Assembly (NCBI GenBank): GCA_002269645.1
Contig: NIVC01001325.1
Span: forward strand, 186,001-250,000
DNA from: Macrostomum lignano
Lineage: Eukaryota
Reading direction: 5' to 3'
Length of the DNA: 64,000 nucleotides
The notes below the pieces were generated by a model. That model was not told the DNA's origin and did no database searches. It saw nothing but the letters and a program-made list of their open reading frames with translations. Positions within the stretch are counted from its first letter, which is position 1, and every line of letters starts with the position of its first letter. The position numbers were made by a program, and so were the translations under genes. Below are positions 2,683 to 30,515 of this stretch, in pieces.

Positions 2683-3341
2683 TGAAGTGACACATTTTGG
2701 CTCTTATAGAAAGTTCCCATCCAGATGGAATGTATTTTAACCAACGAATGCGCTCCAACTAGCAAAAGCTGAGGACACGACCCCAACCTCAACCAATGAA
2801 AAACAGTTATGTACCATCCAATGCGATCAAGACTGAAAAGTACTATAAAAGCTCATGTTAACCAACCAAGAAGCTCGCGCCTCCCTGGCCTTTTCTCTCT
2901 TCCGCCTCTCTTTCGCCCTTCTCCTATCTTACCTCCTTTGACTACTTTTGATTGACACTGCCAGGGTCTCGGCCCAAACACTAAAACTGATAAATTGACT
3001 CACTAAAACTAAAACAACAACCAACCCACGTTCCACAATAGACTGAACCTTCGGTTCCCCCGAACACTTAGAAACCCCTTGGAACTCGAACAAAACGAGC
3101 TTCTTATTTGGAATTCCATCTTAGACCTTATATTTTGTAAGATAACATCTCGAGATTGTGACCATCAAATACAACGGTCTGTAAGTTAACATCAAGTGTT
3201 TGCATCATCAGGAAAAGTCAGTTGAATCCGCCGCCTCAGTTATTTGGCTCTCACATTGATATTTGAAGTAGAACAAGAGCCATAGAAGTGAGAGACCAGA
3301 AGAAGAACAATAAAACCTACATATTATTTTAAAATATTTCA
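2683..3341 (+). repeat. 5' LTR (659 bp)
   Basis: Starts TGAAG, ends TTTCA. CCAAT motifs ~2792 and ~2817, TATAAA ~2844, AATAAA ~3309. About 7 substitutions and one 3-bp indel versus the 3' LTR by eye. Confidence 0.95.
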
Positions 3342-3342
3342 C

Positions 3343-3356
3343 TGGTTCCCTGACCG
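3343..3356 (+). promoter_or_regulatory. Primer-binding site complementary to tRNA-Glu 3' end
   Basis: TGGTTCCCTGACCG lies 1 nt after the LTR. Its reverse complement CGGTCAGGGAACCA matches the 3' end of metazoan tRNA-Glu(CUC) plus CCA as recalled. Confidence 0.85.
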
Positions 3357-5143
3357 TACTTTTCCTCCGATGCTTTTCACCACAATAGCCGCCATGCCCT
3401 ACATGGGGTAGACAGCTATAGGCGTGGCTGATGGGTGCGAACGGTTGGACTGGCTTCTCCCCCCCCCCTCCCCTTTGAGCATTCGAGACTGTCAATAATA
3501 CATATTCGAAGAATGAATCGTAAATCACGAGCTCTTAAATTCAAATTCAGAATTCAAATCGGTTCTAAGTTTTGTCCAGTGCACTGAGACCTGATTCACG
3601 TCATTTCAAATTCAAAGGAGCCATGCATGAAAGTCAATACATTATCGTTCCGGAACAATTACAATTTCAATTCAATTCAAGAAACGTCGTCGAACATCTG
3701 ATATCGAGTTCTTATTCTCAAGCCTCAGAGCTTCAATGCAGAAATTCAATTCAGTTATTCTGATCCTCAATTGTTCAAGCTTCAAAGCTTCGATTTTTCT
3801 AAGACCGCGGCATCATCAATTGTTCAAGTTTATTTAATGTTGGACGCCTCTTTATTCACTGCTTTTCCACAGAATAGCAACGTTTGCTCTGGACTTCCTC
3901 ATACAAGTATGAGACTCTCCAAAGCGACTGCGCCATTCGTTTTTCCTCCTCGGTTTTTCCCAGCAGTGTGTGGCCACATCCAGAAAACTGGCTTATCTCA
4001 GATTCTCTGCCCAGTTAAGCGCCCGAAAGAAAGAACGAAAACGCAAAAAACCTGACGAGCTATTCAAACGAAGTCACTACAGCAAATATTAATCAAACTC
4101 TGGAGCCACCAATTTCTTGCTGTCAGAAAACTTCTTCGCTTATCAGACAGGCTGCTTGCCTGACCATTCATTATCTTCCTTGATTAAAGCCCACGATTCG
4201 CTGGTTGCCGAGCCTGCGTGCTCCATCCGGAAAACCTTTTTGCTTATTTTTGCAGACCGCTTGTCTAGCCTTCCATCATTTTTTCTTGATTAAAGCCAAA
4301 AAACTTACTGTTTGCAGACTTCATGAGCCCCATCTATCAAATCCTTATCCACCCAAGTTTTTTTTTTCGGATTGTTGATTCTGGCGGTTGCCCTTTATAG
4401 ATCATTTTGATGTAGAGATTAGGATGCTTTGGAATCTTCTTGTGTGTTTAATCAACTTCAGTGCCCTCCAACAAATCCTTATCTTAAACAAGCTGCCCAA
4501 GTCAGACTTCGCGCGCATACTTAATCTCCCAGAGAGACCTCTTTTCTTGATTAGAACCATCACTCAACTTCATCTCCCACGAGAAAATCTTTTTCTCAAT
4601 CAAACTGTCCAGGCCAGCCTTATCATGCCACTTCATCACCGGCCCAGCGATGTTTTTTCCGCAATCTCTGACAACCGACTTCCCCTGGGATCTGTCCCTA
4701 GCCCCCTCCCGTTTCGCATGATGGATTAAGACCAAAATAACCTCAACTTTTCTTCCATCTCCCTATTGCCAGTGGCCAAAGCCGTTTGATACCCCACAGA
4801 GCTTGTATTCTAGTTATTTTGCCAGTTATTCTGTTCTCGGCTTTACAAAAAACTACATTAACGCTATCTATTACCTACCTTATTAAAATAGAACTTTGCC
4901 CATATTTTCCACCTTTTCTTAAAAGCAGCCTGCGTTGATTTAAATAGTTAAACAGGTTGGTTTGGTTGTGTATTTTGCAAGCATCTACACACAGAGAGGG
5001 TGGTCGCGGCACCAACAGTATGTAAATATATGTACACTAATAAGTAATTCTATATCTACAAAAAACTATACCAAAAATTACAAAAACATGAAAATTAAAA
5101 TTAAAGATACATAAACCTAAAGTCAGTTATTCCCCAAATTAAA

Positions 5144-5425
5144 TTACACCAGAATAAAGTTACCCCAGCGTCGTCCCGCTACAATCTCCTCCTCGACTTG
5201 CCGGAGTTCCTGCCACCATTCGAGGCGGCGCTCACACCACTTGCGGACGGGTGTGACTAGCCGCCTGAACGCTGACAGGAGCCGTGAACCCCGCCGAGCA
5301 CCCCGCTTCGTGTCGCGGGGCCAGCCGTCCTCCAGCAGCAATGCGAGTTCCCACAACCGCCGACAGAGCCACCACCATTGATCCGCCGTCTTCCTCGTCC
5401 TTTCGAGTTGGGCTTCCATAGCCAT
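5144..5425 (-). CDS. Antisense accessory ORF (93 aa, Trp/Arg-rich, unknown)
   Basis: ATG-initiated GC-rich island in an AT-rich leader, divergent from ORF-A. Confidence 0.4.
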   Translation of the reverse strand: MAMEAQLERTRKTADQWWWLCRRLWELALLLEDGWPRDTKRGARRGSRLLSAFRRLVTPVRKWCERRLEWWQELRQVEEEIVAGRRWGNFILV

Positions 5426-5520
5426 AATGGGTTGTCGAGCAGTCGCGGTTCGGGAATGGTTGAATTGACAGAGTCGCGTAGGAGTAGCAAACCTTATCCG
5501 TTCCCCTTCAGTTTAACCAA

Positions 5521-5659
5521 TATATGCGCCCCGCCTCCCAGGCATAGCTTGGAATTCCCCCAACCAACCAATGAGGACGCCGCAAACTCTGTTCCCAACT
5601 CCCTTCAGAATTTGCCATCAACAGCACTATTCTGCTAGCACTTTTTGCAATACTATAAA
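5521..5659. promoter_or_regulatory. Candidate internal (bidirectional) Pol II promoter
   Basis: GC box GCCCCGCCTCC 5528-5538, CCAAT 5568-5572, TACTATAAA 5651-5659 (same 9-mer as the LTR TATA). Confidence 0.45.
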
Positions 5660-5799
5660 TCGACAGGATCCCGCACTTTTGGGTTAATCGCCTCTCCAGT
5701 ACCACCGAAACTGACTGCAAGATCGACCTTTCGCATATACAGCCTCTACCGACTCAGCAAACACCGTAAATACTCTCAATTGTGTATTCTTACTTCAAT

Positions 5800-6677
5800 A
5801 TGGCCGGATTTCAGCATATCCATGCCCTCATCAAGGCCCTCACCGCTTCTGATGATGTCCCGCTCTTTGACTGTATGTGTGAAATGTACTATTGCCAACA
5901 TCGCCGCAATTTCATTTATTACCACCCCTCCTATCTTTCGCCCTTCCCGTTTCCTCGCACTGTTAAGCCTGCTATTCCAGATTCCCTACATCATGATCTC
6001 TTCAATTGTAACGGACGCTTCGATCTGGTAGCCGACTTCGCCTTTACCATTGCCGACTCCTACCTTTCCCGGATCCACGACCACTGCCAATGTTCTATTC
6101 CGGGACAGATAGACAATATTCTGTTCCACCTCGAGGGCCTCCATACCCCACCCCTGCGAGGAACCTTTAAGTCTGCCATCGTCGAGCTAGCCATCCACCG
6201 CCAGGAGTTCGAGGTGCTCTTCCGCACCCTGCGTTGTGTCAATTTCCACACCGCTAATCCTCTCAACTACGAATATCTCCACCGAATGTACCGTGACAAA
6301 ATCGATGGCATGGAATGCGAACGTTATGATCAACTGCTCCAGAGCTTTGTTCCCCCCCGTTTCCGACTCACCCTCGAGCATGTTTAACCTTGCCTCACAC
6401 CAAACTCCGCCACCACTTCTGGTCGACCTGGACGCGCCATCGCGGCAGTTCTAGAGGTCAGGCCATTGAAGCTCACTTCCTCACCCTCCCTCGGTTCCAC
6501 CGGGAACACATAGTTGGCCATCCCGAGTTCACCGACGACCCCTGTTTTGAAGTTAGCGACTCTCCTTGCCCCACACTCGAGGACACATCACTTGTGCCGA
6601 AGAAAACGGTTCACCACCGCGACTACCGCTGGCAGGTCCTACGCTTGGATTGCCTCCGCATACGGTGGTCGCCTTAA
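5800..6677 (+). CDS. Accessory ORF-A of the LTR element (~290 aa, Cys/His-rich, unknown), one -1 frameshift ~6375
   Basis: ORF 5782-6387 (first ATG 5800) abuts ORF 6390-6677 in the -1 frame. Globular-looking composition and upstream TATA box. Confidence 0.6.
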
Positions 6678-7649
6678 TTACCTTATTCCCTCCCCCTAAG
6701 CCGCAATTTCTATGGCCTCAGCACCAACCCCCCTCGGGCCCTGTAAATATACTATACTCTCTCATTGTCTTTTGAGCACAGTTTCATTTCCAACTCACTT
6801 TCTGTTACCTTCTCAACTGTATTGTGTAAACACTATTTTGAAAATGATCCTTTGATCGACAAAAATTATAAAATTCAAAACCTCAAAAAGCACGTCTCCA
6901 TTTATTTTTCTTCGCTTTATCTATGCTAGACTATTCACATAGTGTTTTCGTAGCCTGCGACAAACTCAAAATGATCATTAGATTGCAAAAAAAACAATAA
7001 AACCAGGAAAACACAAAAAACAATACAATTGTTTATAGTTCATTGCGTATAATCCGTAGTGCTCTTATCATGTTAAATTTACAAAATGATCAGTCCGATC
7101 AATAAAAATTATAAAATTTCAAAAATTAAAAATAGAAAATTTACAAAACTACCGGTACAAAAACAATACTCTACGTTTGCTTAAATTATGAAATTAACCC
7201 CCTAGCTGAAACTCGTCAGAAAATTCAAAATTCAAATGCGAAATTCAAAAGCCAGAACAAATTCTCAGAAGAAAAAACTGCCGACTTCAAGAAAAAGAAA
7301 ACTGCCGATTTCAATGATACAAATTCGATTTTATTGGCCACCACTGATGTCCGTCTAGTCCAACATTCAGGAGCTCTTTTATCAGTTTATCAGTTTCGAT
7401 AAAAGTTTCAGAACCGATTAAAAAGGCAGTTCAATTCAAAATTACTTCGATTTTCAAAGCTCGTTGCAGATCACAGTTCAAAAAATCACACAGTCTCTCT
7501 TTTTCTCCCTTCCCCAGCCAGTCCGCCAACCGCAACCCTGAAAGCCATTGCCGTTTGCTCACTTTGAACTTGACACTCTCTCTTTATTTTGCTATCAGTT
7601 ACATTTCTGTGATATCGTTCCCCCGAAATTATTGATCGTATTCTTGTTG

Positions 7650-9000
7650 ATGACCTCACCTGTCCGAGATTTACTTTCCGGACCAGTATTCCAAAGCTCA
7701 AATCTTAACAGACCTCCTCAACAAAATTTAGAAATTTCTGACCGTCAAGTAGGCGAACAGCCTCCACGAAATAGTTCACCAGTTCCTAATCCGTTTGTAC
7801 CAGATAACGTTGAGCTTAATAACCCTCTTGCGGATCATTTTGAACACAACCGTGCACACTCGCCAGAACCCAGTTCCATTCTAACAGACGTGGACGAAAC
7901 AGTTCAACAAGTCCCAAACGCTATTGCTGAAGAATCTACTCTAGACATGGCTGATCAGGAAGCCGCTCCCCATGTTGATGCTGCAGCCACAAATGCTGTC
8001 CGCGAACTCACTGATGTTATGAATCGCAGTCTACAATTGCAATCGAATCATCCCGTCTCAGCTACTGCTCTTGCTAAAATTCGTCAATCCCTGAAAGGAA
8101 TCGACCAAATGCATGACTTCCGTTCCTTCACTGAAGAGTTCGACTTGATCACACGCTCCTTTGGACTATCGGAGAACGCAAAGATTCGGCTCTTCCCGCG
8201 ACTACTGAATGACCTTCTTAAACTCGAATACAGTCGCCTTTCTGCCGTGGTCCAAGCCTCTTATCCAGCCACCATTGAGGCACTATCTCAACGCCTTTGG
8301 GAAGTAACCATTGGTTCGGCTCTAACGCTGCATAATGCAACAACCCGGAAGCAACAGTACGGCGAACCGTTCCTGTCCTATTTCACCGACATTCGTCGAA
8401 AGCTCCGGTCAGCTATGCCGGAAATACCGGAAGAATTTCCGGAAGATGCCGGTCCGGAAACACCACCCGCGAACCAAGCTGTCATCGACCAGCGAAACCG
8501 AGACTTTCTCGCTACCCTGATGGCTACGACTATCAACAATGCTCTACCCTACATCAAACGAGAACTCTTGAAGCAAAATATCACCACGGAAAGTACGCTA
8601 ATCAACAAGGCCATCCGCGTGAACAAATCCGCGACTCCACCATGGACTCTGATGGCACTGACTTGAAGGCTCTGACTGAGCGCCTAACAACCCTAGAGAA
8701 AACAACGAAGGAAGCCAATCAACAGGTAGTTGCTCTCTGCAAACACAAACCAAGCCACTCACTGCTAATGTGCAACAAAAGCCGACTTGTTATCATTGCG
8801 GTCGACCTGGACATTATGCCGCCGACTGTCGTCGAAGGAATGACGAACAGCCTCGTCCCTTCCGACCTAACTCTGACGATCGAAGAAACGCAGCTCACTA
8901 CGGCTCGGACGCCCGCGAAATCGCTACCAGCAGGCGCCGCCACGGTTGACCTGTAACTATTGCCGGAAACCAGGACACTCTATTAACCAGTGCCGACTAC
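7650..9000 (+). CDS. gag: Gag (capsid + two CCHC zinc knuckles), interrupted by three -1 frameshifts (~8618, ~8745, ~8935)
   Basis: ATG 7650. Gag-like helical CA (FRSFTEEFDLI...QQYGEPFLSYF). Knuckle CYHCGRPGHYAADC at ~8788-8829 lies in a frame absent from the ORF track. Second knuckle CNYCRKPGHSINQC at ~8952-8993. Confidence 0.88.
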
Positions 9001-9500
9001 GAGCCCAACGTACACAAGGCTACGGTCCACCGGCGACACAACAATCACGATTCCCACCTCGTCAAGACTACAGAAATCGGCCTCAGCAACGCTATCCGCC
9101 TCGATACAACGACACCAACAATCAACGACAAGCTCTGAGATTCGCGCAACAACAATATCCTCCAATACGCGCCATCACTGCTCAGGATCCTGAAACGTCC
9201 CACCCAGGATGGAATCAACAGCCGCAGATTGGATGGACGACTCACGACGCTCCCGAGTCTGCCCAACTGATGCACATTGCTACAGTTGATGAACGCCCAC
9301 CGACTTTTGGAAACGAAATTCGCTACTCTGGAGACGCTAAGCAGCTGAAATCTTTACTCAAAAAACCGACTACTGCCGCTGCGACTATCAACTCTATTCG
9401 CCTTTGTACGGTTGAAAGAGTGACTAACGCCTACACTCCACCGAACAACAACAACAACCGCGAGAATACCGTGAAAGCTTCCGTTGGAATTCGCCAATCA

Positions 9501-12260
9501 CTACTGGCACTTTTTCTCCTTTGCCTAGTAACTTCACTCTTCTCACTAGCCAACGCTACTCCGGTAACGACGTCAACTCCACCATCGATCGAAAGACAAT
9601 CTCAAGAGGGCTTCATTGACACGCCAATGGTCTGTCCGTACAACCAGATCCCACGAATCTTTACGATACCACACGAAATCCGTTGTGAACAGCTCAAACA
9701 CAAAACCACACCGGCACTTCCGTTAAAACTAGAACTCTACAAAACTAACGTCGAAACCAGCTCCCTGGTCATGACTGTCTGTTTTCGCGAGAAAATCACT
9801 ATTAGATGTGATACTGCGGTGGTAAGAACCTGGACATCCGCCCTAGTAGAGTTAGAGCCACAACCAGTCACCAAAGCTGATTGTGAAAATTGGGCGCGAA
9901 CAAAGCTATCGCCTGATGGATCATTAGTGCTAAAGACTGCGTCAACTCAGTCTATCCAACGCCTGCAATCGACATTCAACACGCAAAATGCTGTGCGTTG
10001 CACTCCTGGTTCCCATTCAGAACAAATAGTAACAACGGTGATCACCGGAATCCCAGCCTACTCAACAGCAGATCAAAAAATGGAATCTTTTTCCTTCCCA
10101 ATGGACAACTGCAAACTCGCAGACAAATTTTGTACAATTAAAACAACTGCACAAGAAATGCGAGCTTTCAACCTACCTTTGCCGATACTAACATCTCCCT
10201 GGGATCCTTTGGAAACTGAAGCAATCTACCAAATTGACGTGAAAGAACCAAGACACCTGAATCTCATTTGGACACCTCCACCGCTCGCTGATTGTCCTTT
10301 AAAACCATTTCGTACTCTTGAAGGCAACTTAAACTCCGGCTTGTTCTTAACTAATGACCAAAAATTGGGACTAACCTTCAACCCAGTGCCGTCGACTCAC
10401 ACTCTCACCTGCACTGGCGTCCGTAAGACATTGTACCTTTCAACGCAAGGTCTCTACGTAGACATCCTTGACAACAAAGAAGCAGACTTTCTCGCCACCT
10501 TACGAAGCCCATTAGAGGAAGCCACTCCAAAACCTCAAATTAGCAAAGAAACCACTTCTTCGAGACAAAAACGTCGTTCACCACCAGCCATACTACCAAC
10601 GCCACCAACTATATTACCAGTTCAGCAATCGACAACTCAACATCCTTCCACTACGACAACACAGTCACGACAACTCCTACCGCCGCAACCTTTACGACAA
10701 GAACGACCTGATCATCCACCGACGTCAAGTACCTCTACAACAATGACGCCAACAACTACGATACTAACTACTACAAAATCAACACCAACAACTACAATTT
10801 TGACAACAACAACTCCACCGACTACAACAACACCACCGACTACAACGAAAACACCACCGACTACAACAACACCACCGACTACAACGACAACACTACCGAC
10901 TACAACGACAACACTACCGACTACGACAACACCACTGACTAGAACGACAACACCACCGACTACAACGACAACACCACTGACTACAACGACAATGCCACTG
11001 ACTACAACGACAACAACACCTACAACAACCGTAACACCGACAACTCCAACAACCACAACTGCTACAACCTCAGCAGCAACAACGACAGCCGACTCAACTA
11101 CAACGACAACGAAAGTGACGACACAACCTCGTGCCACCACCACTCTACTGCCAGCAACCTCAACCTCTAGCAGCACAACCAGTGCACCAGCAAAGTCTAC
11201 CACCTCGACCTTCACGACGAACCTACCAACGACAACAACCAATCCGCAACTGGCTTCTATTTATACGAATCTAGCAGTTCCACATCACGAACCAAAAGGT
11301 AGTCAACCGGACCTCCTGCTACTACCACGCAACAAGCGAAGCACAGACGACAAAACCATCGCAGCCCCTTCAGGCAACTCCACTGCGCAACTCTCATCAA
11401 CGTTCGCATCCGCTGAACTTCTTGCTGGACAACTACAAGGAGCTGCTAGTAAAGCTCGAAAAGACCTTCTCCAAGTGCAGAGACAACTTGCAACTACTCA
11501 ATGCATGATGTACGCAACTAATCTCAAGTACAACCGACAGTTATACTACACACAACCAACGCTCGCTGCTCGACTCTTATTAAATGATCCTTTCTTGCGA
11601 ACTAGATCCATTGCTGGATACCTCTTCGTCTACCAGTGCAAACCTCTACATCAATTCTGCTTTGTCCAACCAAAGTATAAGACGAACCAATGCTTCATGC
11701 GTCCCCCACTGGAATTCCGCCTACAAAATTATACTGTTCTTGGTTTTTGGACACAACGACTCGTATTGTCTCCACAGCTACTCCAGCTCTAATCTCATGC
11801 GACGCCTTCCCATACTACTACCTGCCTAAACAATCGATGCTATTCAAGACCACACTAAATTTTTTGAGATTCGAACCCACAACCGCTAATGTCAGATCCG
11901 ATGAAAATTATCGGTTGTCCGATTCGCAAACTTCCGTCTCCGAAAGCATCTTCAAACCTATGGGAGATATCAATTATACTTCACTTCATAGCCCGATAGC
12001 GGTGACCGACCTAATGCACCAGTTCATGCAAACTCGCGATTTCCTGATTACGGTTTTCAAACTCCCGAATCGAACACGACACAGAACAGCCATGCTGACA
12101 GTGCATTCCTGGACTCAAAATTAGCTCTCCTCAATCTATGGTCTTCGACGATATTCAACTGGGATCGACTAGTCGCAAACTATCAAGAAAAGTTCGTATT
12201 AACAGCAGCTGTAATTGTCTACATTGCCGTTATTATCTTCGTGTGCAATCTTGGCCGACT
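9501..12260 (+). CDS. env: Envelope glycoprotein, class III (herpesvirus gB / rhabdovirus G-like), embedded between gag and pol; frameshifts ~11738 and ~12055
   Basis: Signal peptide LLALFLLCLVTSLFSLANA|T (9501-9557) and Cys-patterned ectodomain. gB-like block GQLQ...QC...PTLAARLLL...R..AG..F..QC...CFMRPPLEF. Furin sites RQKR and RNKR. TM FVLTAAVIVYIAVIIFVC (12193-12246). Confidence 0.8.
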
Positions 12261-15200
12261 ATGCGTTGCCAGCACCATCCGTTACGGCAGAACGCACACT
12301 ATACAAGTGCTGCGGCAACAACGAACTCCAACTCGAGTAGAATCACAAAACGACTACTCCCAACAACAACAACTGATGCCACCGAGACAAGCGCCAACAC
12401 CTTCAGCACCCATCGAAACGATTGAACTTCGTGCCACCCTTCCGCCACCACGGAGACCACCACCAGAACCGAAAGTTCCAAAATGGCCAGCAAACTACTC
12501 ATACGCCTTTGTTTTAAAGCACCTAACAACAGCAACAATGATCAACCTGTGGTGCCGCAAAGCACCGCATACTCGACACAGATGCACCGCCCTCATTGAC
12601 AGCGGCGCCTCGATCTCCTGCATCTCTCCGGCATTCGCCAAGAAGCTTCGAGTACCACTACAAGATACCAACATGAACGCCATTTGTGCAGGAGGACAAC
12701 AACTAAACCTCAATAAAAAGGCTACTTTTGATCTCGAAATCGATGGACGAAACCACAAGATATCAGCCTTTGTGCTAGATACTCCCGACGCTGACTATGA
12801 CTTGCTTCTAGGAGTGGAAACCTTCAAATCACTGGAATACCACTACAATTCGACTACTCAAAAGCGACAGCTAAGCTCGGCAATGAGCAATTTGCGATGC
12901 TCAACTCAATTCAACAGTTGAAAGAAACCTCTGCAGTGATGCAAAAGAAACTAGAGTTACCACCACAGACAACGCATCAAGTTACGTTGAAACTTTCTTC
13001 TCGACATGAGCCAACGATTCCTGTTCTATTCGTCCCTAAGGACCACACGATCCGAAAACACCAGTTGATGATACCAACTTGCCTTGTTTCTGTCAACCCG
13101 GACGGACAAACTATCAACGTAGAAGTCACCAACCCGTCGCTGACAACACAAACCTTGCATCCTCAACAAGTCATTGGAAATCTGGCCAACATGTCTGACT
13201 ACAACATCGTGCGCCCAGCAGCTCAAATCAACAGTCTACGTACGCTGCAACAAGAAGCACCTACGACTGACATGATTCGTACTCAACTCAAACAAGCCAA
13301 CCAGCACCTCTCAGCCGAGCAGAGTGAACAATTGGTCACTCTGATGAACAAGTACCGTGACGTCTTGGCACTATTGCCAACTGATATGGGTTGCTCTACC
13401 CAATACACGGCTCACCTGCATCTGTACCCACACTCTGAGCCAGTCACGTCCAGACCGTATCCAATCGCTCATGGATTACAAGAACGATTTGACGAACTTA
13501 TCGAAAACTTCCGTCAAAAAGGAATTATCAGTCCGAGTGAATCTGAATACTCGAGTCCATGTCTTCTCGTGGAAAAGAAGACGCTCGACGCTCAAGGTCG
13601 TCGACAGCTAAGACTCGTGACGGATTACCGAAAACTGAACAAGCTAATTCGTGCTCCTAGCATCCGACCTCCGAAGATTCCGGATTTGCTACATCGATTG
13701 AAGAACGCTAAACTGTACACACTCTGTGACCTAGCAGATGCTTTCTACCAAGTTCGAATCGATCCAGAAAGCACAAAATACACTGCGTTCATTGCACCGA
13801 ACGGCCTACTTTGGGAATTCAATCGACTACCTCAAGGACTCAAATCCAGTCCTAGCTTAATGTGCCGTCTTGTAGCATTGTTAACAGCTGACTCTCCAAA
13901 TCAGATTGCCTACTTGGATGACGTCATGCTCATCGCCGAAGACTTCACCGGCATGCTCAAAGAAGTTGAGCGCTTCTTCCAAAAGTTACGACATCATGGA
14001 TTGCGAATTTCACTCCGAAAATGCATCTTTGCTAAAACAGAGGTACAATATGTCTTGGATTTGTGGTTTCTGCTCAAGGCATTAGACCAGCTCCCAGCCT
14101 TATCGAAAAAATCAAGACCTTTCCTGTGCCTCAAACGGTTAAACAACTACAATCTTTCCTTGGACTTGCAAATTTCTACAGAACGCACATTGCTGGCTAC
14201 TCACGAGTAGTACAACCACTTCTGAGTATTATCAAAAATACTTCGAAGCCTAACAAATTCGTCTGGACGAACGCTGCCCAAACAGCCTTTGAAAAACTGA
14301 AACAACTTTTCTCTACGGACATACTACTGGTTCATCCAAATCCGCGAAAACCGTACTTCCTGCACACTGACGCCTCGGATACCGCCATTGGAGCAGTACT
14401 CTCACAGCTAGATGACAACAACCATCAACGCCCGGTTGCCTACATCTCTAAGACGTTAAGCTCAACTGAACAACGCTATCCACCGATTGAACGCGAAGCA
14501 TACGCCATCTATTGGGCAATAAAGAAGCTACACGTGTTCCTCTACGCTTCTTACCAACAGTTCCACGTCTTCACTGATCACCAGCCACTCAAGAGCCTAT
14601 TCAGCGACAAGCAGCCAATTTCAAAACGACTTCAGAAGTGGATTCTAGCGATACAAGATTACAACTTCACCCTTAACTACGTGAAGGGCAAATCAAATGT
14701 AGTAGCAGACTGCCTTTCACGCATCCCCAAAGTCTGTCAGATACAATCGCTGTCAACATTCAACGGACTGCAGGCTGCTATTGATCAAGATCCACTATTG
14801 TCTACAATCAAAGCGCTTCTATCGGAACAGTCACCCACACACGAGCTGTCCAAGAAAGATCAACAATATGTTCGCCGACACCTGGCACGTTATTTCCTGG
14901 ACGGAAACACCCTGTACTTTGAAGATGACGAAGGACGAAGCCGCTTCGTGATACGAACACGCTATCGTGAAGCTCTTTTGACAAGCAACCACTCGACAGC
15001 CCTTGGTGGTCATCTAGGTCACCAAAAGACAGCAGACAAAATCAGTCACTTCTATTACTGGCCTACACTACGACAAGATGTCTACAATTTCGTTAACAAC
15101 TGCAAAGTCTGCCACAAAGCGAAAACAGCACCTCGACTGCGACCAATGCACAAAGCCGTAAAATTCAACGAGGTTTTCTCTCATTTGGCTATTGACCTTG

Positions 15201-16197
15201 TAGGTCCACTGCCACCAGCTTCACACGGCCGCGACGTCTACAAGTACATACTCACGGCCCAATGCGGCGTTAGCAAATTCCTGTTCACTATCCCGCTAAC
15301 TGAGACAACTTCTGCAACTATCTGCAACAACCTCTTCAACCGTGTGTTCGCTTTCGCAGGACTACCAGCACACATCATCTCAGACAATGGACCCCAATTC
15401 ATCTCGCAAGAATTTCGAGAGTTTATGGGTGCCCTTGGAATACACCTGATCTACACCTCGGTGTACCAACCATCCAGCAACTTCGTCGAACGCGCTCACA
15501 AGACACTGAAGCAAACTCTTACGGCCTTCGTCCATGACAAACCAGATCTCTGGATTGACTTCCTACCTGCGGTGACACTAGCAATCAATACCGCCGCCCA
15601 CTCAACGATGAACGAATCACCATTCTACTTGTTCTTCGCTCGAGACTTCCTGCCACCCAACGCACGGATCATGGAACACCAGACAACTGCATCATGGACG
15701 TTATTAAACCAGTCAATTTGACCTGTTCAGCTATTTTGCTTGCCAGAGAAGTCGCCAAGGAACTTCTGCACAACTCAGCTGAACAGCGCGCTGAAAACTC
15801 TGATAAGAAGACCAACAGCCGCTACATACGCCCAGGTGCTCGATGCTATTTGGATATCTCAGCAACGAAGGAGACAAAATTCTCCAATCCTTATCGTGGC
15901 CCAATGCGTCTACTAGCATGGCTCTCCGATCAGAACGCACTAATTTTTTACGTCAACCGGCCAAGCGAACGACCAATCGTGGTACATGCCTCCAAGCTGA
16001 AACCATGGCCTGGAGATGGACTCAGCGCTGGACCTAGTCACCTACCTGAGTTTACAACTGATGACATTCAGGTCCACCACAACCATCGGCCGCCATTGAG
16101 CAAGTCCATCGCGCTGCAAACCACGTCCACTGATGAGCCACCAGTCCAGCCACAGACGCATGGCTACAACCTAAGATCGAAGAACAAGAAGTTGTGA
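12261..16197 (+). CDS. pol: Pol: aspartic protease, RT, RNase H, integrase; frameshifts ~12840, ~14052, ~15690
   Basis: PR LIDSGASISC (D at 12598). RT LVTDYRKLN, DLADAFYQ, LPQGL, YLDD (13911). RH TDASDTAIGAVL, EREAYAI, TDHQPL. IN H-x6-H...C-x2-C, AIDLVGP, SDNGPQF, VER. Confidence 0.95.
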
Positions 16198-16506
16198 ATG
16201 ATCAAAAATCTTCTAAATTTCTTTTCTCCTTTCTTTTCCTTAACTGACAATATTGCTTTCTCTTCCTTTCTTTCTCTTCTTCTTTTCTTTCCTTCTTTTC
16301 TAACAATTTTGCTCTCTCTCCCTGCATTGCGACACTTTACGTGACTATATTGACGAACTGACACAAATGAACTTTTATTTTCTGTTTTATCAACAAAAAG
16401 CTACAAAAATTTTCTTTCTTTTCCCTCTTTACATTGCAGAGCTCACACGCTAAAACAACATTTTAATTTTGTGTATCTATTGCTTTTCTCCCTTTTCCTT
16501 TCTCTT

Positions 16507-17436
16507 ATGGATCCATTTCCGCAACCAGTGGATATCCGACCACAGTTAAATCATGATCTTATTTGCCTCGCAACCGTTGTTGCTTGGTTCACTGAAGCAA
16601 TATTTTATTCTGAAACTATTGGTGAATCCCAACGGCTACGCATGGCCTCCGCTTTCTTCTCTCGTTTTTATGTTATCCGCCATCATCGCTTTTATCCTAA
16701 GATGCTCCGCGTCCTGCGAATTAGTCTATTTGGTGTGCTGCGTCGTACTCACTCACGACCACGTATACAGAACTTTTCTCCCACTATGACTGGCGTTCTA
16801 CGCCGCAGCTTCGTACCAATTATACATTTTCTTTTCTCTCCTAATATGTCTATCGACGATTTCTTTCAACTCTCTGCTTCTACTCTCCCTCAATCATGCC
16901 TGCGCTTTAACCAAGACACTTGGCCTTTGTTGCTTTCCTCTCTGCGCTACCCATGGCAACAATTCCGCCATGATGCTGCTAATCTTTCGGCGCAAAAGTT
17001 AACATCTACGCTCCAAAATTATTTAACCTCCTTCGATTATCTCGCCCCTTATGTTTATCAAATTTTTGCTCCGTTTTTTCCCCGTCCTACTAAGAGCGCT
17101 ATCATACGCACGCTAAATCGTCTGTATCCGCACAATTTTTTCTTCACCCACGCTGTTTTCATTCTCTCAACGCGTTCAAGAAGCTTTGCTTTTATAATTA
17201 TCGATTTTTATTCTCGCTCGGTAGTTGCCCATACTATCTTCCCTTTCTCTTGTCCTCCGCTTCGTCGATATTTATACAATATTCACCGTATACGAAATGC
17301 TCATGTTGGCTACCCTAACACCTTGCCAGAGTATGCCGCTCTTCATACCTTCTCCATCAAGCGTATTAAGCATTCTCCTCCTTCTGATCTTAATATTAAT
17401 TTTGCTCGACTGGCATACGTTTTTTATATGATTTGA
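16507..17436 (+). CDS. Accessory ORF-B (309 aa); C-terminal half resembles a degenerate integrase core
   Basis: Uninterrupted ORF with ATG 16507 downstream of a strong acceptor (AG at 16438-16439). Contains FIIIDFYSRSVVAHTI...GYP...LHTFSIKRIKHSP. Confidence 0.7.
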   Translation: MDPFPQPVDIRPQLNHDLICLATVVAWFTEAIFYSETIGESQRLRMASAFFSRFYVIRHHRFYPKMLRVLRISLFGVLRRTHSRPRIQNFSPTMTGVLRRSFVPIIHFLFSPNMSIDDFFQLSASTLPQSCLRFNQDTWPLLLSSLRYPWQQFRHDAANLSAQKLTSTLQNYLTSFDYLAPYVYQIFAPFFPRPTKSAIIRTLNRLYPHNFFFTHAVFILSTRSRSFAFIIIDFYSRSVVAHTIFPFSCPPLRRYLYNIHRIRNAHVGYPNTLPEYAALHTFSIKRIKHSPPSDLNINFARLAYVFYMI

Positions 17437-17647
17437 TTCACCATCATCGCTCACTATTTTAATCCGCTTTTTCTCCAATATTGAGCGTTGAAACGCCACA
17501 CATTTTTTCCCAAAAAATACTCACAAATATTTTCCGTTTCTCTGCCTATTACTCCTCCGTTATTTTGCGCTAACCTTTGTAAAGCCTATGCTATTTTTTT
17601 CTCTGTTATTCTGTCAACTGCTTTTTCGAACGTCATCACGCACTAAC

Positions 17648-17900
17648 CTGCCCAACCCTGCTCAACCCTGCTCAACCCTGCTCAACCCTGACCTACACGA
17701 CTGCTGCTCTGTGCCTGGTCTTTGCCAATTGCTGCCCCTGGCGCTGCTGTAACCAACTTCAAACAACAACCTTGCTCTACACAACTGCCGCTCTATGCCT
17801 GGTCTCTGCCTACTGCTGTCTCTGGCGCTGCCTCAGCCAAAGTCGAACAACAACTTTGCTCTACCCAGCTGCCGCTCTATTTTATGCCTGGTTTTTGCAA
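17648..17900. repeat. Short tandem repeats inside the element: 11-bp CCCTGCTCAA(C) x4, then ~84-bp unit x2.5
   Basis: Directly visible repeated units. Confidence 0.7.
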
Positions 17901-18022
17901 GTCGCTCGACCTCTGGTGCTGCTTCCACCTAAGTCAACCAACTAGCACTAAGGCATATGGCTCAACAACGTCTGTTCTTTCATGACTGCTCAGTCTGCTC
18001 ATCTGACAACTTCGGCATCACA

Positions 18023-18373
18023 TCATGTGGTGGCCCTGAAAAAGGCCGTTGTAACGTTCAAAGGACGGCAGAGCCGGCAGAGCAGCCAGGGCGCTAACAC
18101 GGCCGCTTCTACCGACTCCACCGAAGGCGCTTCCGCGTCGGCCGCGGCGGCCGGTGTTTCTGATGGGCCCGCGCGACAGCAACAGCGACGGCAACAACGA
18201 TAGCACTGTTGGCAGACCGAGCACTGGCCCAACAGTGACAGTAACACTAGTGCCCCCAGCACCACCAGGACCACGATAGTGCAAGTCCAGCGGACGTCAG
18301 CTTTATCACAATGCTCCTGCGACTGTCGTGCTAGATCTCCTAGCAGAAAGCGCAAGTTCTTCATGGTACTCAT
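18023..18373 (-). CDS. Antisense accessory ORF: small single-pass membrane protein with Cys/Arg-rich juxtamembrane segment (116 aa)
   Basis: MSTMKN...WTC TIVVLVVLGALVLLSLLG QCSVCQQCYRCCRRCCCR. Minus-strand TATATAA at ~18463-18469. Confidence 0.55.
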   Translation of the reverse strand: MSTMKNLRFLLGDLARQSQEHCDKADVRWTCTIVVLVVLGALVLLSLLGQCSVCQQCYRCCRRCCCRAGPSETPAAAADAEAPSVESVEAAVLAPWLLCRLCRPLNVTTAFFRATT

Positions 18374-19296
18374 GATGCTAATTAGAGTGGGAATTAATTT
18401 GACCAAAAACACTTTCGGTTAAAAAAATCACCTAACTCTCCTCGTTCTGTTTTAGTTTGGTGTTATATACCCCTTTTGGGCCTTTTCATATTACCAATTC
18501 CAGAACCAGAATCGGTTCGGAATTCCAAGAAAAACAGCAGTATAACTATTAAACTCTGTTAATATTTGACTGCCTTAACAACCTAAATTAGCACAATTTT
18601 TCACTTTCTTCTTGGCGATTGTCATTCAATAATAAAAACTGTATAGCACGTATCTCCCTCTAGTTATGGAGACAAAAAGTTATACTTCACAAATTGGTTC
18701 TGGTTCTGGAACCAGAGCAAGCAATATGAAAAGGCCCTTTGACTGTACAATTTTTCCTGGAATTTTCACTATTTCATGCTCCCTATTTAAAAGATTTTAA
18801 CCTCATAGCTTGTACATATGATTTATTAACTGCGCGGCTCCTTGCTACAACCACCCCAACTTTCACTGTATAACGATTTTTATTACCTTCCTTCTAACTC
18901 AAACGCGTTTTCATTTTAAGCTTGTGTCGCTAAACCCCCGTTTTGCTCTGTACACCTATTTTATCGATTTTTTTGGTTAACCCTCGCTACGTTTTATTCC
19001 ATCCTTGCTTAACTAGTTTAGCTTCGCCTAACTAAAGGCCCTCTGCGCTATCCCTTCTTTTGCTATTTAGACTGATGTTGTACTTTAACCTATGTTACCT
19101 TGCTTAAATTGGTTCCCTTTTACTCAAACATTTTTGCTAACATTATTCACTGCGCACTATTTTTTTCTGCAACAACTTTTCTCGTTTAATACAATGCGTT
19201 ATCTTTTTCTGCAATTTTATCAATTTTAGCCCCCTGCTATACTTTTTCTGTTGTTATGCGCTCGGAGGGCCTCGCTTCCCCAAAAAATAGAGCGAA

Positions 19297-19952
19297 TTAA
19301 GTGACACATTTTGGCTCTAGAAACTTCCCATCCAGATTGAATGTATTTTAACCAACGAATGCGCTCCAACTAGCAAAAGCTGAGGACACGACCCCAACCT
19401 CAACCAATGAAAAACAGTTATGTACCATCCAATGCGATCAAGACTGAAAAGTACTATAAAAGCTCATGTTAACCAACCAAGAAGCTCGCGCCTCCCTGGC
19501 CTTTTCTCTCTTCCGCCTCTCTTTTGCCCTTCTCCTATCTTACCTCCTTTGACTACTTTTGATTGACACTGCCAGGGTCTCGGCCCAAACACTAAAACTG
19601 ATAAATTGACTCACTAAAACTAAAACAACAACCAACCCACGTTCCACAATAGACTGAACCTTCGGTTCCCCCGAACACTTAGAAACCCCTTTGAACTCGA
19701 ACAAAACGAGCTTCTTATTTGGAATTCCATCTTAGACCTTATATTTTGTAAGATAACATCTCGAGATTGTGACCATCAAATACAACGGTCTGTAAGTTAC
19801 CATCAAGTGTTTGCATCATCAGGAAAAGTCAGTTGAATCCGCCGCCTCAGTTATTTGGCTCTCACATTGATATTTGAAGTAGAACAAGAGCCATAGAAGT
19901 GAGAGACCAGAAGAAGAACAATAAAACCCACATATTATTTTAAAATATTTCA
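19297..19952 (+). repeat. 3' LTR (656 bp)
   Basis: Near-identical copy of 2683-3341 (starts TTAAG, one mismatch). Preceded by purine-rich AAAAAATAGAGCGAA (PPT, ~19282-19296). Confidence 0.95.
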
Positions 19953-26192: not shown

Positions 26193-26490
26193 CATACATG
26201 CGCAACCTCCAAAATTCGGTCGGCCGTGCGACTTAGTTTTAACAAAAATGCGACGTAGTTTTTGGCCAAAAATGCGACTTACATGTAAAAAAACCCTAAA
26301 GCAAAATTAACGCAACTTTGGGTAAACGGCAGGAGTAACTATGACTGTTTTATTAAGCCAAAATGCCTCGTCAGCTACTTAGTACTACTACTTGGGTATT
26401 TTTTTAGGTGGACATTTTTGCGACTTCCTTGGTTGGCTGCCAAATCAGTCGGCCGGATCGGCCGACTCGGCCGACTGTTGCGCACGTATG
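26193..26490 (+). mobile_element. MITE copy 1 (298 bp, 14-bp TIR CATACATGCGCAAC)
   Basis: TIRs at both ends, flanked by a 9-bp direct repeat ATTCATTAT. Confidence 0.85.
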
Positions 26491-26809
26491 ATTCATTATT
26501 ATATGTCATTGATAGAATTCCTATCACATGAGCTTTTGGTCAATGGACAAACTTGAAATTACTAGAAAAGCTCCAGCCTTCTTTGAGCAGTGCGCTGCAA
26601 GCAAAATATGATTCCTTAGTGCAACCAATTATAAAAGTGTAGTACAGGCTATAGCCTGAAGTAGCCACATGTGTATAAGATGCTAAGGGATGATTTTTGC
26701 ATAGGAGCTACTAATGTTGATAGAACTAGGGGAGGTGAGAGATTCAAAGCAAGGGACGTAAACCATGCATAGTTTGATCATAAGTTTGATTATTGCATGG
26801 GTTCTGGGG

Positions 26810-27109
26810 CATACATGCGCAACAGTCGGCCGAGTCGGCCGATCCGGCCGACCGATTTTGCGGCCAACCAAAGAAGTCGCAAAAATGGCCACCCGAAAAA
26901 ACACCCAAGCAGTAGTACTAAGTAGCTGACGAGGCATTTTAGCTTAATAAGACAGTCATAGTTACTCCTGCCGTTTACCCAAAGTTGCGGTAATTTTGCT
27001 TTAGGGTTTTTTTACATGTAAGTCGCATTTTTAGCCAAAAACTACGTCGCATTTTTTTGTTAAAACTAAGTCGCACGGCCGACCGAATTTTGGAGGTTGC
27101 GCATGTATG
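26810..27109 (-). mobile_element. MITE copy 2, inverted relative to copy 1
   Basis: Reverse complement of 26193-26490 with scattered mismatches, flanked by an 8-bp direct repeat TTCTGGGG. Confidence 0.85.
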
Positions 27110-29828
27110 TTCTGGGGACGCAATGAGAGGCAGACGAGAGCTCACTTTTGATCATCAAAGGCTTGGGCGCCATTGCTACTGGTGTTTTAGTGTGCGCATT
27201 ATGTCTCCTTATCATATTAAATGTGCATTTGCAGTGTCTTTCTTCATTTAATGTGAAATATTTTCACAAATTTTGCCTACATTTTTGTTTGTCTCTGTTT
27301 CTGCATGCTCATTTGCATTTTTACATCTCATACAACCTCATTTTTCTCAATTAACAAGTGGAATTTTCTTAAAGACTAATTGTTGTTTTAGTTAAGCCAG
27401 TAGATTTTTAGTAATTAATAGAGATTTAGTATATTGTACAATAATATTTAATATTGTCTAATTTTTCCAAAAAAATCCAATTTATTGAATTAATTGAAAT
27501 CAATTTGAATTATTTCAATTTAATTTGATTTAAATTTATAATAAGTAACTATAATTTTCAATTTTAAGTACTTATAGCCTTATTATAAGTATTAATGTAA
27601 TAAGTAACTTAATTAAAATAAAATCAAGCAAGTTATAGTTTTCAAAAGTTACTGCAAATCAAATATTTATACTAGTGTCCAAATTCCTCTATAAAAGAGT
27701 ATTTAGTCGATATGAAGTCTATAATGTGCATTTTTGTTGTTGAAGGATAGTTCTTGATTTATTCTATTATTAGTTCCATTTTATTCTATTGTATTCAATG
27801 TAAAAATGAAGAATTCTATTCAACATAAAAATGAACATTATTTTATTGGTCAAATCATCTTGACTTTCAAAAGATATGTATTGTAAACTGTATTTCTAAA
27901 TTCAACCTTTTTAAGATGTAAGAATTCTTAATTCAGTGAGTAAGTTAAATTGATCAAAGTCCATTTGAGTGAATGCTAAATAATTTCGCACTTTGATTTC
28001 TTGCACATGATAAATTTAAATGTCTAGGATTTAGAGCAGAGAAACGAAATATTGTGCTCAAAAACATTTCCTTTGTCGATTTCTTGTTCTTTTATTATTG
28101 CAAAAGAAATGAAAATGCATATTTTAAATAAAAATTAATAGAAATTTTTTAAAATATTTTTGTCATTTTTTAATTTATTTTATTTATTATTTATTAATAT
28201 TTATACTATTATTTATTTATCATTTATTTGTCAGTAACAAAGATTAACAAATCGATTGATTTCTTCTCATACTTAAGTTTTCTTGTGGTTTTAGTAGCAG
28301 ATACTTATAGAAATTGTCAAAAGAACAATTATTTTTTGTACAATTATTGGTCTATGTACAAACTTCTTTTTCAACAACAAAAAGTTGTGACCTATCTTTG
28401 AGAATGACCCAGATGTTGACAAATTTGGTTTAACCCATTGTTTAATAGTTCTTTAATAGTTCCTTAGTACAATAAGGTCCTTTATTGTTGCAACTGCAAA
28501 AAAGGTGGCATACCATTGGGGTATGTTTTTTCCCATAGACAAGAGGCATTTTTTCCAGTGTACCATGCTATACTATCCAAACACTAGCTTCTCAGTACCT
28601 TGAAATAATTTATACAAATCAAATAAAAAAGCACATTATCTTAAGAACTAATTTCTTCTGTTTTATAAATCACCTTATTCAAGTAAAATTTTCATAGACA
28701 AAGATGTTCCTTATAAATCCCTTTTTTCTTAAAGTAACATAAGGACAAAACAAAATAAAGCCTTCACAAAAATAATAGGCATTCCTCTAAATAGAAAGCA
28801 TCTCCTAGATACCAAATGTCCTCCAAATAGCAAGCATTTCCAGATGGCAAGCAAACCTATATAGCAAACATCCCTTAGATAGCAAGTATCCCACAGATAG
28901 CAAGTGGCTAATGCAACAATTTTCTGAGCTAGTGCAATAATTCTTTTTGCATATAGTGCAATAATTATTTTTAATCAAGTGCTTCATTTGATATTGCGCT
29001 ATCACTATGCAATATAAAAAACAATGTTGCACCCTAAGAGTTATGGCAATGGTTGTGGCTATTATATTATACTTTAAAATTTTTGGCTATGGCCCTTTGC
29101 TTAAGTCCCGTCCCCATTTTCATAAAATTTGCCTAAAAATAAGATATACCATCCAATAATTTTGAATTAAAAAATGGGGCTTCACCTTGGCTAATGAATG
29201 CCTAGACCTAAGTATCTAGATTACAAATGCAAATGTTAGTGTTGCATCAATAGGATCTTAGATATAGTTATAGCCAATGTTAAGGTTGCAGAAGTCATAG
29301 ACTTCTATGTATAGTAGCTATTTAGGATTTTTAGTTTGAAAAATTCACCAAAGTTTGTGTTTATCTAGTTCAGTCATAATATTTTATAATGCTATCAACC
29401 AGGAAATTTATAATTTAAATAGCAAACTCAACTATCTAAGTTAGAAAAATATTAAATTGCAGACTCATCAAGTTATTTTAGATATCTGTTATCTTGGTAT
29501 ATAGACCTATAGTATATAGCTAAATAAGAGTCTTTGGAAAAAGCTATCACAAGCTAATATATCTTCATAGTTGTAGCTAAGGGAGCGCATATCTGTAGCT
29601 GTGGATGTAGTTCTGATAATGCACTAGTTTTTAGTGTATTTGTGTCTAGTGATAGACATCAATAGAGACAGCATAGGACCTACACCAAGCAAGCTAGAGG
29701 CAATCACCCCCAAAGGTATAGAAAATCTCACTGATTAATCATTGATCATCATGATAAAAACAGCACTAAAACCAACATCCTATAATCTATGCAACTTCAA
29801 GCCTGCAATAACAATTATTCCCCAGCAA

Positions 29829-30515
29829 ATGTCGGCACTCATTGACAAGTCAGTCTGTGTGCGGCTAACTCCAGCTTTGCTGGCCTTCCTGCGCAATGCC
29901 GCCACAGCACCGGATGGCCAGCTGACCGCAGACTGTCTCAGCAGTATTAGACGCATCCTAGATAGTGTCGAAAGCGACAATGAAGCCAGCAGCTGCGGCG
30001 TCAGTTTCGCTCTGATTAAATCGGTGCGCGACTGTCTGGCGTCGAATGCCAAACAGTCGCCGCCGCCGCCTCCGCTGTGGCGTCTGCTAGTCGGCAGCGA
30101 ATTGCTGCTGCCTAAGCCGCCTGATCGGCCTCCGAATCCGGAGCTGGCAGCCCGGCTGGAGCGACTGCGAGCCGAGCAGGCGCAGCGCGAATACGATCGA
30201 ATGACCGCCGATGTTCGCTCGACGCCGCTGGGCAGTTCGTATCGTAATCGACAATTCCATGATGCTGACGACAGTCTTGGCAGCCAGTTGCGCATGGTGA
30301 ACAGGCAGCTGGCTACTGTGGTTAATTTTCTATTGACAGTTGGGGCGGCGTTCGCTTTCGGTTACAAGGCCTGCGAATTGGCTAGCAGCGAGCGTTCGGC
30401 CCCATTGGTGTACAAAATGGCCGCAGGCTTGCTGCTGGCCGCCGTTGTGTTCTTTGCCGATTTGTACTTTGTTGTTAAGCTGGACTATTTGTCTGGAAAG
30501 AAGAAAGCTGATTGA
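29829..30515 (+). CDS. TMEM199: V-ATPase assembly factor TMEM199/Vma12 (228 aa, single exon)
   Basis: PPDRPPNPELAARLERLRAEQAQREYDRMTADV, two C-terminal TM segments (VVNFLLTVGAAFAFGY; LAAVVFFADLYFVVK), KKxx ER-retrieval end. Confidence 0.92.
   Translation: MSALIDKSVCVRLTPALLAFLRNAATAPDGQLTADCLSSIRRILDSVESDNEASSCGVSFALIKSVRDCLASNAKQSPPPPPLWRLLVGSELLLPKPPDRPPNPELAARLERLRAEQAQREYDRMTADVRSTPLGSSYRNRQFHDADDSLGSQLRMVNRQLATVVNFLLTVGAAFAFGYKACELASSERSAPLVYKMAAGLLLAAVVFFADLYFVVKLDYLSGKKKAD

Follow-up and report, generated by a model that had tools for sequence, protein, structure and literature searches.

The 64,000-nucleotide stretch of Macrostomum lignano DNA analysed here (contig NIVC01001325.1, positions 186,001 to 250,000 of the forward strand; hereafter the window) carries a 17.3-kb LTR retroelement of the Ty3/gypsy type at 2683-19952, with the gene order gag-(env-like)-pol and all features on the plus strand. 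The 5′ LTR (2683-3341) has TG...CA ends and the target duplication GCGC directly ahead of it, the 3′ LTR (19297-19952) has GCGC directly behind it, and the pair is identical at 648 of 656 aligned bases. Donor-like sites lie in the 5′ LTR at 3137, 3181 and 3288, and a TGG motif resembling a primer-binding site follows at 3343-3354. The 4-kb leader contains ORF-A (5800-6387, 195 amino acids), the second of two orphan accessory genes. The gag region (7542-9200), spread over several frames in the window copy, gives a weak Pfam match to a CCHC zinc knuckle. Pol (12560-16197, start approximate) is broken up by changes of frame in the window copy, and Pfam recognizes in it protease, reverse transcriptase, RNase H and an integrase (H2C2 and rve), in the order expected between the LTRs of a Ty3/gypsy element. 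Between pol and the 3′ LTR of this complete element lies the subject of this study, ORF-B (16507-17436), an accessory gene of 309 amino acids preceded by a predicted pyrimidine tract and AG acceptor (16414-16439). Its codons 226-244 (17182-17238) form a hairpin motif resembling the integrase β2-β3 turn.

The interval between gag and protease (9200-12400, limits approximate) holds about 3 kb of coding sequence that is Cys-rich and has a Thr-rich tract and a hydrophobic stretch. A mucin-like, Thr/Pro-rich tandem tract occupies 10700-11260 inside it. Pfam and PDB sequence searches of the region returned no env match, and it has a gB-like look. We infer that it may encode a gB-type env, by analogy with gB-type errantiviruses, for which the same gene order has been reported in nematodes, bryozoans and flatworms (PMC13524379).

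Elsewhere in the window we observed a small MITE-like element (26193-27109) with terminal inverted repeats of about 300 bases that are 94-100% complementary, an intronless host-like ORF of 258 amino acids (29739-30515) and, between 33700 and 63500, many minisatellite arrays with units of 8-46 bases.

ORF-B runs from ATG to TGA without interruption over its 309 codons, and all the peptides quoted from it in the initial annotation are found within it. A frame of this length was reached in none of 500 composition-matched (order-1) simulations of its DNA. A search of the host genome with ORF-B gave 31 matches at 21 places, namely 18 close copies (94-100% DNA identity) and three partial copies at 82%. 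Wherever the sequence of a close integrase copy continues beyond pol, ORF-B follows; two further integrase copies lie at contig ends. Fourteen of the 18 close copies are uninterrupted, 11 of them reaching 318 amino acids with a different end; the other four carry one to five small deletions, and small indels also occur in the three divergent copies. In-frame stops are absent from all 21.

When 12 copies were compared with the window copy, the distinct codon changes numbered 46.5 at 214 synonymous sites and 54.5 at 686 non-synonymous sites, which gives a dN/dS of 0.37 (Fisher p 3e-7, a value that is approximate since the copies are related). The ratio is 0.39 in the N-part and 0.31 in the C-part, against 0.07 in the integrase core and 0.14 in the integrase tail, and ORF-B evolves about five times faster than the integrase. 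Against the three copies at 82% identity it is 0.32-0.34, at a dS of 0.39. Identity among copies is about 95% in ORF-B vs about 87% in the adjoining 200 non-coding bases, and residues 206-262 are the best-kept part relative to one divergent copy (48/57). The AG of the predicted acceptor ends at 16439, and the first ATG after it opens ORF-B. Five such strong sites occur in the element, and this acceptor alone among them lies behind gag; 18/18 close copies retain it, with no ATG ahead of the ORF-B start. Our results show that ORF-B is a real, protein-coding gene under purifying selection weaker than that on the integrase. The initial annotation had described a separate, uninterrupted gene with its own acceptor, and this part of it stands; it had also named a dN/dS near 1 with frequent disruption in other copies as refuting its reading, and neither was observed.

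The encoded protein has a pI of 10.4, with 34 K+R vs 14 D+E and three Cys in all. Its peak 19-residue hydropathy is 1.43, with no clear membrane stretch, and ORF-B is hence not env-like. The underlying DNA is A- and G-poor and pyrimidine-rich, which could partly account for the basic, aromatic composition of the protein.

Two sister families, with integrases 68% and 64% identical to that of the element, fall in one clade with the ORF-B family (support 100/99), the branching order inside it being unsettled. No match to ORF-A or ORF-B was found in them by tblastn. The distance from pol to a common 3′ landmark is 700 and 416 bases in the sister families vs 1827 and 1460 in the ORF-B family, which makes ORF-B a module, either gained or lost, of about 1.0-1.1 kb. 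No close copy extending past pol is without ORF-B, and both sister families lack the corresponding 1.0-1.1 kb. One sister family (L031, L058; G000:C270, C1672, C4280, C247) encodes everything from gag to integrase in a single frame of 2859-2866 codons and has neither a long leader nor a 3′ ORF. A separate observation in the 3′ untranslated region is a short motif around a GGCC-(A-rich loop)-GGCC hairpin (window 18024-18062; L031:2060-2100; L034 reverse 1940-1977), kept in three families whose flanks are otherwise unalignable; it is a candidate cis-acting RNA element.

At least seven of ten other integrase lineages sampled in the host genome carry their own unrelated 3′ ORFs (of at least 200 codons), two of them RING-like, so that varied orphans commonly occupy the 3′ slot in this genome. 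In a high-copy gypsy lineage (L040-L043) two 3′ ORFs stand in tandem (for example L040:1373-2038 and 2177-2740), each combining a helical tail with a pair of Cys-rich, RING-like fingers (Pfam RING E 2e-4); they are possible element-encoded E3 ligases. Two further gypsy families share an orphan 3′ ORF of 254-260 amino acids on the minus strand (L044:4799-5578 and L045:4856-5617), 41% identical between them and well kept in the C-terminal half. Kinship of ORF-B with this last pair was considered and rejected (hhalign probability 0.08). Fragments of the ORF-B family and of the RING-carrying family were also found packed together, nested and partly inverted, at L051-L057 (G000:C87, C2121, C2152), an arrangement resembling transposon graveyards or small-RNA clusters. 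At L035, L036 and L038, integrase fragments are interrupted by a stretch with two ORFs, one presumably deoxynucleoside-kinase-like and the other, a long one, resembling what we take to be a Maverick/Polinton-type polymerase.

ORF-A is also selected, with a dN/dS of 0.20-0.24 at a dS of about 0.8 relative to divergent copies about 70% identical. It diverges more among copies than pol does, which suggests exchange of the leader module between subfamilies. None of 23 candidates was a relative of it. In the window pair, ORF-A is weakly alignable to ORF-B 187-243 (BLASTP E 0.004, 19/2000 shuffles). This likeness fades with four divergent ORF-A copies (369-798 of 2000 shuffles) and is reached by 9/150 when profiles are compared; divergent ORF-A copies have a similar strand (6-7 of 1000 shuffles), in a window chosen afterwards. 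A reading of ORF-A itself as an integrase core is not supported, with 273 of 1000 shuffles scoring as high.

The initial annotation had gone further and read ORF-B as a candidate catalytically dead second integrase, with putative roles as a targeting factor, dominant-negative regulator or decoy for which no evidence emerged here. Library searches with the protein were blank. No match was found in Pfam, NCBIfam or PHROGs; the best hits among PDB sequences (E 0.12 and 0.48) were both unrelated proteins; the two matches among 1.84 billion protein representatives were both repeat artefacts; none of 737 candidates of near length from a 5.8-billion set was a relative; the ESM Atlas gave no informative match to the whole protein or to 195-309; and tblastn against IS-rich plasmids gave E values of 8-10. 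For this reason integrase profiles were purpose-built from integrase cores of the host genome (G000) and plasmid transposases, with 19 rows for the HMM and 18 for the blocks, the block profile omitting a mis-cut row (L076) and an incomplete one (L110); further searches to enlarge the set of integrases added none.

Placed in order on ORF-B, the four integrase blocks total 2.6 bits at best (-3.6, +14.8, -2.7 and -5.9), the sole positive block being the β2-β3 hairpin. This whole-core score was reached by 51/600 whole shuffles and 73/600 local shuffles, and true integrases left out of the block profile score 62-132 bits. The placement agrees with the earlier register for three of the four blocks, block 3 falling about six residues earlier. 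Gapped alignments of ORF-B were matched by 400, 441 and 129 of 500 shuffles at three gap settings, and 32 of 500 shuffles scored as high against an HMM built from 12 local integrases. Simulated integrase cores decayed to about 26% identity drop to the block score of ORF-B in 81% of trials.

The hairpin SFAFIIIDFYSRSVVAHTI (226-244) scores 14.8 bits, a value reached by 5/2000 shuffles for a motif chosen post hoc, and the same block in true integrases scores 23-44 bits. It contains the D-x-x-S/T-R/K signature, with D233 kept in 21/21 copies. The ORF-B hairpin is the only non-integrase among 31 distinct matches in 151,228 redundant residues, and the motif is absent from the seven other accessory ORFs examined. 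Extending the comparison, the HMM score of the C-part was reached by 22/1000 shuffles and the profile-profile score by 5/150, in the same register, with an hhalign probability of 0.1-1.3%; natural sequences here frequently outscore shuffles at p 0.01-0.04. Two other integrase families of the host genome (L098, L094) resemble the motif more than does the integrase of the element, which has Cys at that Asp position, and duplication of the element's own integrase is hence the less likely route. BLASTP between ORF-B and this integrase gave a best E of 0.33, in another region. The proposed rve pattern is thus nominally significant in the hairpin and at chance over the whole core.

A second peptide, YPWQQFRHDAANL, had been likened to one of the element's own, and as a likeness to the zinc finger this is at chance. 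Its score against the zinc-finger block is 2.6 bits, and the best placement anywhere was matched by 359/1000 shuffles. It is spaced 76 residues from the hairpin vs 52-62 in integrases, and it is followed by no CxxC, so that ORF-B has no N-terminal H2C2 zinc finger by this criterion. His215 does occupy the expected position of the first catalytic Asp, as annotated, only three acidic residues occur in 201-309, and in the earlier register none falls at the other two positions of the D,D(35)E triad. With no acidic triad, 'catalytically dead' is plausible; it is the identity as an integrase that profile and fold searches do not bear out.

Structure prediction was of low confidence. Single-sequence AlphaFold reached a pLDDT of 41 over the full length and 47 over 195-309, with 1-206 predicted helical and a β-β-β-α order from 215. 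In the model of 195-309, a three-stranded meander and a helix stand at a pLDDT of about 60; in that of the whole protein, 215-308 form β-β-β-α-β-β-α, the two added strands and helix at 33-41. This predicted order is compatible with an RNase H fold. Five fold searches with these low-pLDDT models found nothing at E 0.001 or Z 8, and no integrase was among the fold matches listed; the best Z was 4.1, to an unrelated ATPase domain. A dsRBD-like reading of an α-β-β-β-α order was set aside, with only weak Dicer and RNase III matches among those listed. Since the models are of low confidence and the block test misses 81% of cores at about 26% identity, the pseudo-integrase is not refuted.

The best surviving alternative is that the C-terminal domain of ORF-B is a decayed, dead core captured from another integrase lineage, which would bind to the integrase, to DNA ends or to a host factor. 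The hairpin and the C-part and profile-profile scores in one register argue for it, together with the resemblance to L098 and L094 over the element's own integrase, the conservation of 206-262 and the predicted strand-helix order; the ability of decayed cores to evade the block test and the fast pace of ORF-B are also consistent with it. Against it stand the chance-level scores of the three remaining blocks and of the zinc finger, the wrong spacing, the missing H2C2, the blank library, PDB, plasmid and protein-set searches, the hhalign probability and the post hoc choice of the motif among sequences that often beat shuffles. On balance we regard this reading as doubtful. Its fuller version is slightly more so: a separately spliced pseudo-integrase from a different lineage, perhaps anciently duplicated into ORF-A, that might regulate or redirect integration or act as a decoy for a host restriction factor.

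Less probable still is that the domain derives from some other dead RNase H-fold protein (an RNase H, a tether or pseudo-RNase H, or a DEDD exonuclease) and would bind RNA or hybrids. The predicted β1-β2-β3-α start fits such an origin. The top non-significant Foldseek matches listed (E 0.1 or more) included endonuclease V, Cas9 and sugar kinases, and a viral library fold search gave RuvC at E 0.028, all of which share the RNase H-type fold. Precedents exist in errantivirus pol with pseudo- or mini-RNase H domains (PMC13524379) and in rotifer LTR elements with DEDDy ORF3s (PMC5408684). The lack of any fold match at E 0.001, the best Z falling on an unrelated ATPase domain and the blank Pfam search count against it, and a three-stranded meander with a helix is very common. 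That ORF-B is untranslated, with a frame that happens to be open in T/C-rich 3′ DNA and is kept for RNA reasons, would suit the A- and G-poor region, the lack of protein relatives and the indels in four of 18 close and three divergent copies, and is made highly improbable by the frame-specific dN/dS, the absence of stops, the simulated frame lengths, the kept acceptor and ATG and the lower identity of the adjoining non-coding DNA.

Known systems place the element and its extra genes. A GAG-ENV-POL order with an HSV/gB-type env is reported in Nematoda, Bryozoa and Platyhelminthes (PMC13524379). The window family, compared here with the main text of that report, resembles these errantiviruses in its Ty3/gypsy pol, the env-like region between gag and protease and its recent multicopy spread; it differs in having two extra genes, ORF-A and ORF-B, and the main text mentions neither 'accessory' nor 'extra ORF'. 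Burro/GYPSM1, giant planarian gypsy elements, likewise have env in frame between gag and pol and accessory ORFs beside the polyprotein, but their extras are recognizable domains (RING, BIR, MATH, BCL2-like) and ORF-B matches nothing (PMC6431247). Extra ORFs in sense orientation, placed between pol and the 3′ LTR, are described in plants (PMC7264820) and as rotifer ORF3s (PMC5408684). ORF-B shares with them its position, sense orientation and presence in most copies, as well as a likely spliced expression and an often obscure origin, and differs in having no DEDDy or GDSL match.

Dead relatives of such enzymes are also on record. Imagin is a domesticated, DDE-less integrase core under purifying selection (PMC12863088); unlike ORF-B, which is element-borne and has neither feature detectable, it is a host gene with a detectable H2C2 finger and core. 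In errantivirus and retroviral pol, the pseudo-RNase H, mini and tether domains show that dead RNase H-fold duplicates do occur in LTR elements, but as parts of the pol polyprotein and not as separate genes (PMC13524379). An element-encoded, separate pseudo-integrase was not found in the literature searched, a scope outside which most subscription papers and Repbase entries lie; on inactive integrases only host-domesticated and Ginger cases turned up, and the accessible text of PMC12801592 makes no mention of 'ORF'. ORF-B is a new orphan among the already described extra 3′ ORFs of LTR elements, with the pseudo-integrase as a minority hypothesis.

Taken together, we favour the reading of ORF-B as a lineage-specific accessory gene of one gag-env-pol Ty3/gypsy family whose product would bind to nucleic acid or to a silencing factor of the host, and give it a probability of roughly 0.55. 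It is preferred on the dN/dS of 0.37, the acceptor kept in 18/18 close copies, the pI of 10.4 and the negative scores of three of the four integrase blocks; the hairpin (5/2000 shuffles) and the RNase H-fold strand order of the low-pLDDT model speak against it. Judging from the sequence, the template for translating ORF-B would be a subgenomic RNA joined by splicing to the acceptor at 16439, the partner being an LTR donor or, if the host uses leader trans-splicing, a trans-spliced leader. The product would be a soluble, strongly basic and non-enzymatic protein. In what is the weakest step of this proposal, it may bind to nucleic acid or to an RNA-silencing factor of the host, and could thereby protect or route the RNA of the element, much as the accessory proteins of complex retroviruses do. 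The integrase-like hairpin would then be a chance or convergent β-turn motif.

If ORF-B were a pseudo-integrase after all, it would present a mobile element that uses a dead version of its central enzyme to regulate where its own insertion is concerned or to bait the defence of the host. On the accessory-gene reading, the family would represent an envelope-type invertebrate retroelement with a layout like that of complex retroviruses, in which two selected orphan genes flank gag-env-pol. The sister families without ORF-A and ORF-B provide natural controls, making this a tractable case for the function of extra ORFs in LTR elements.
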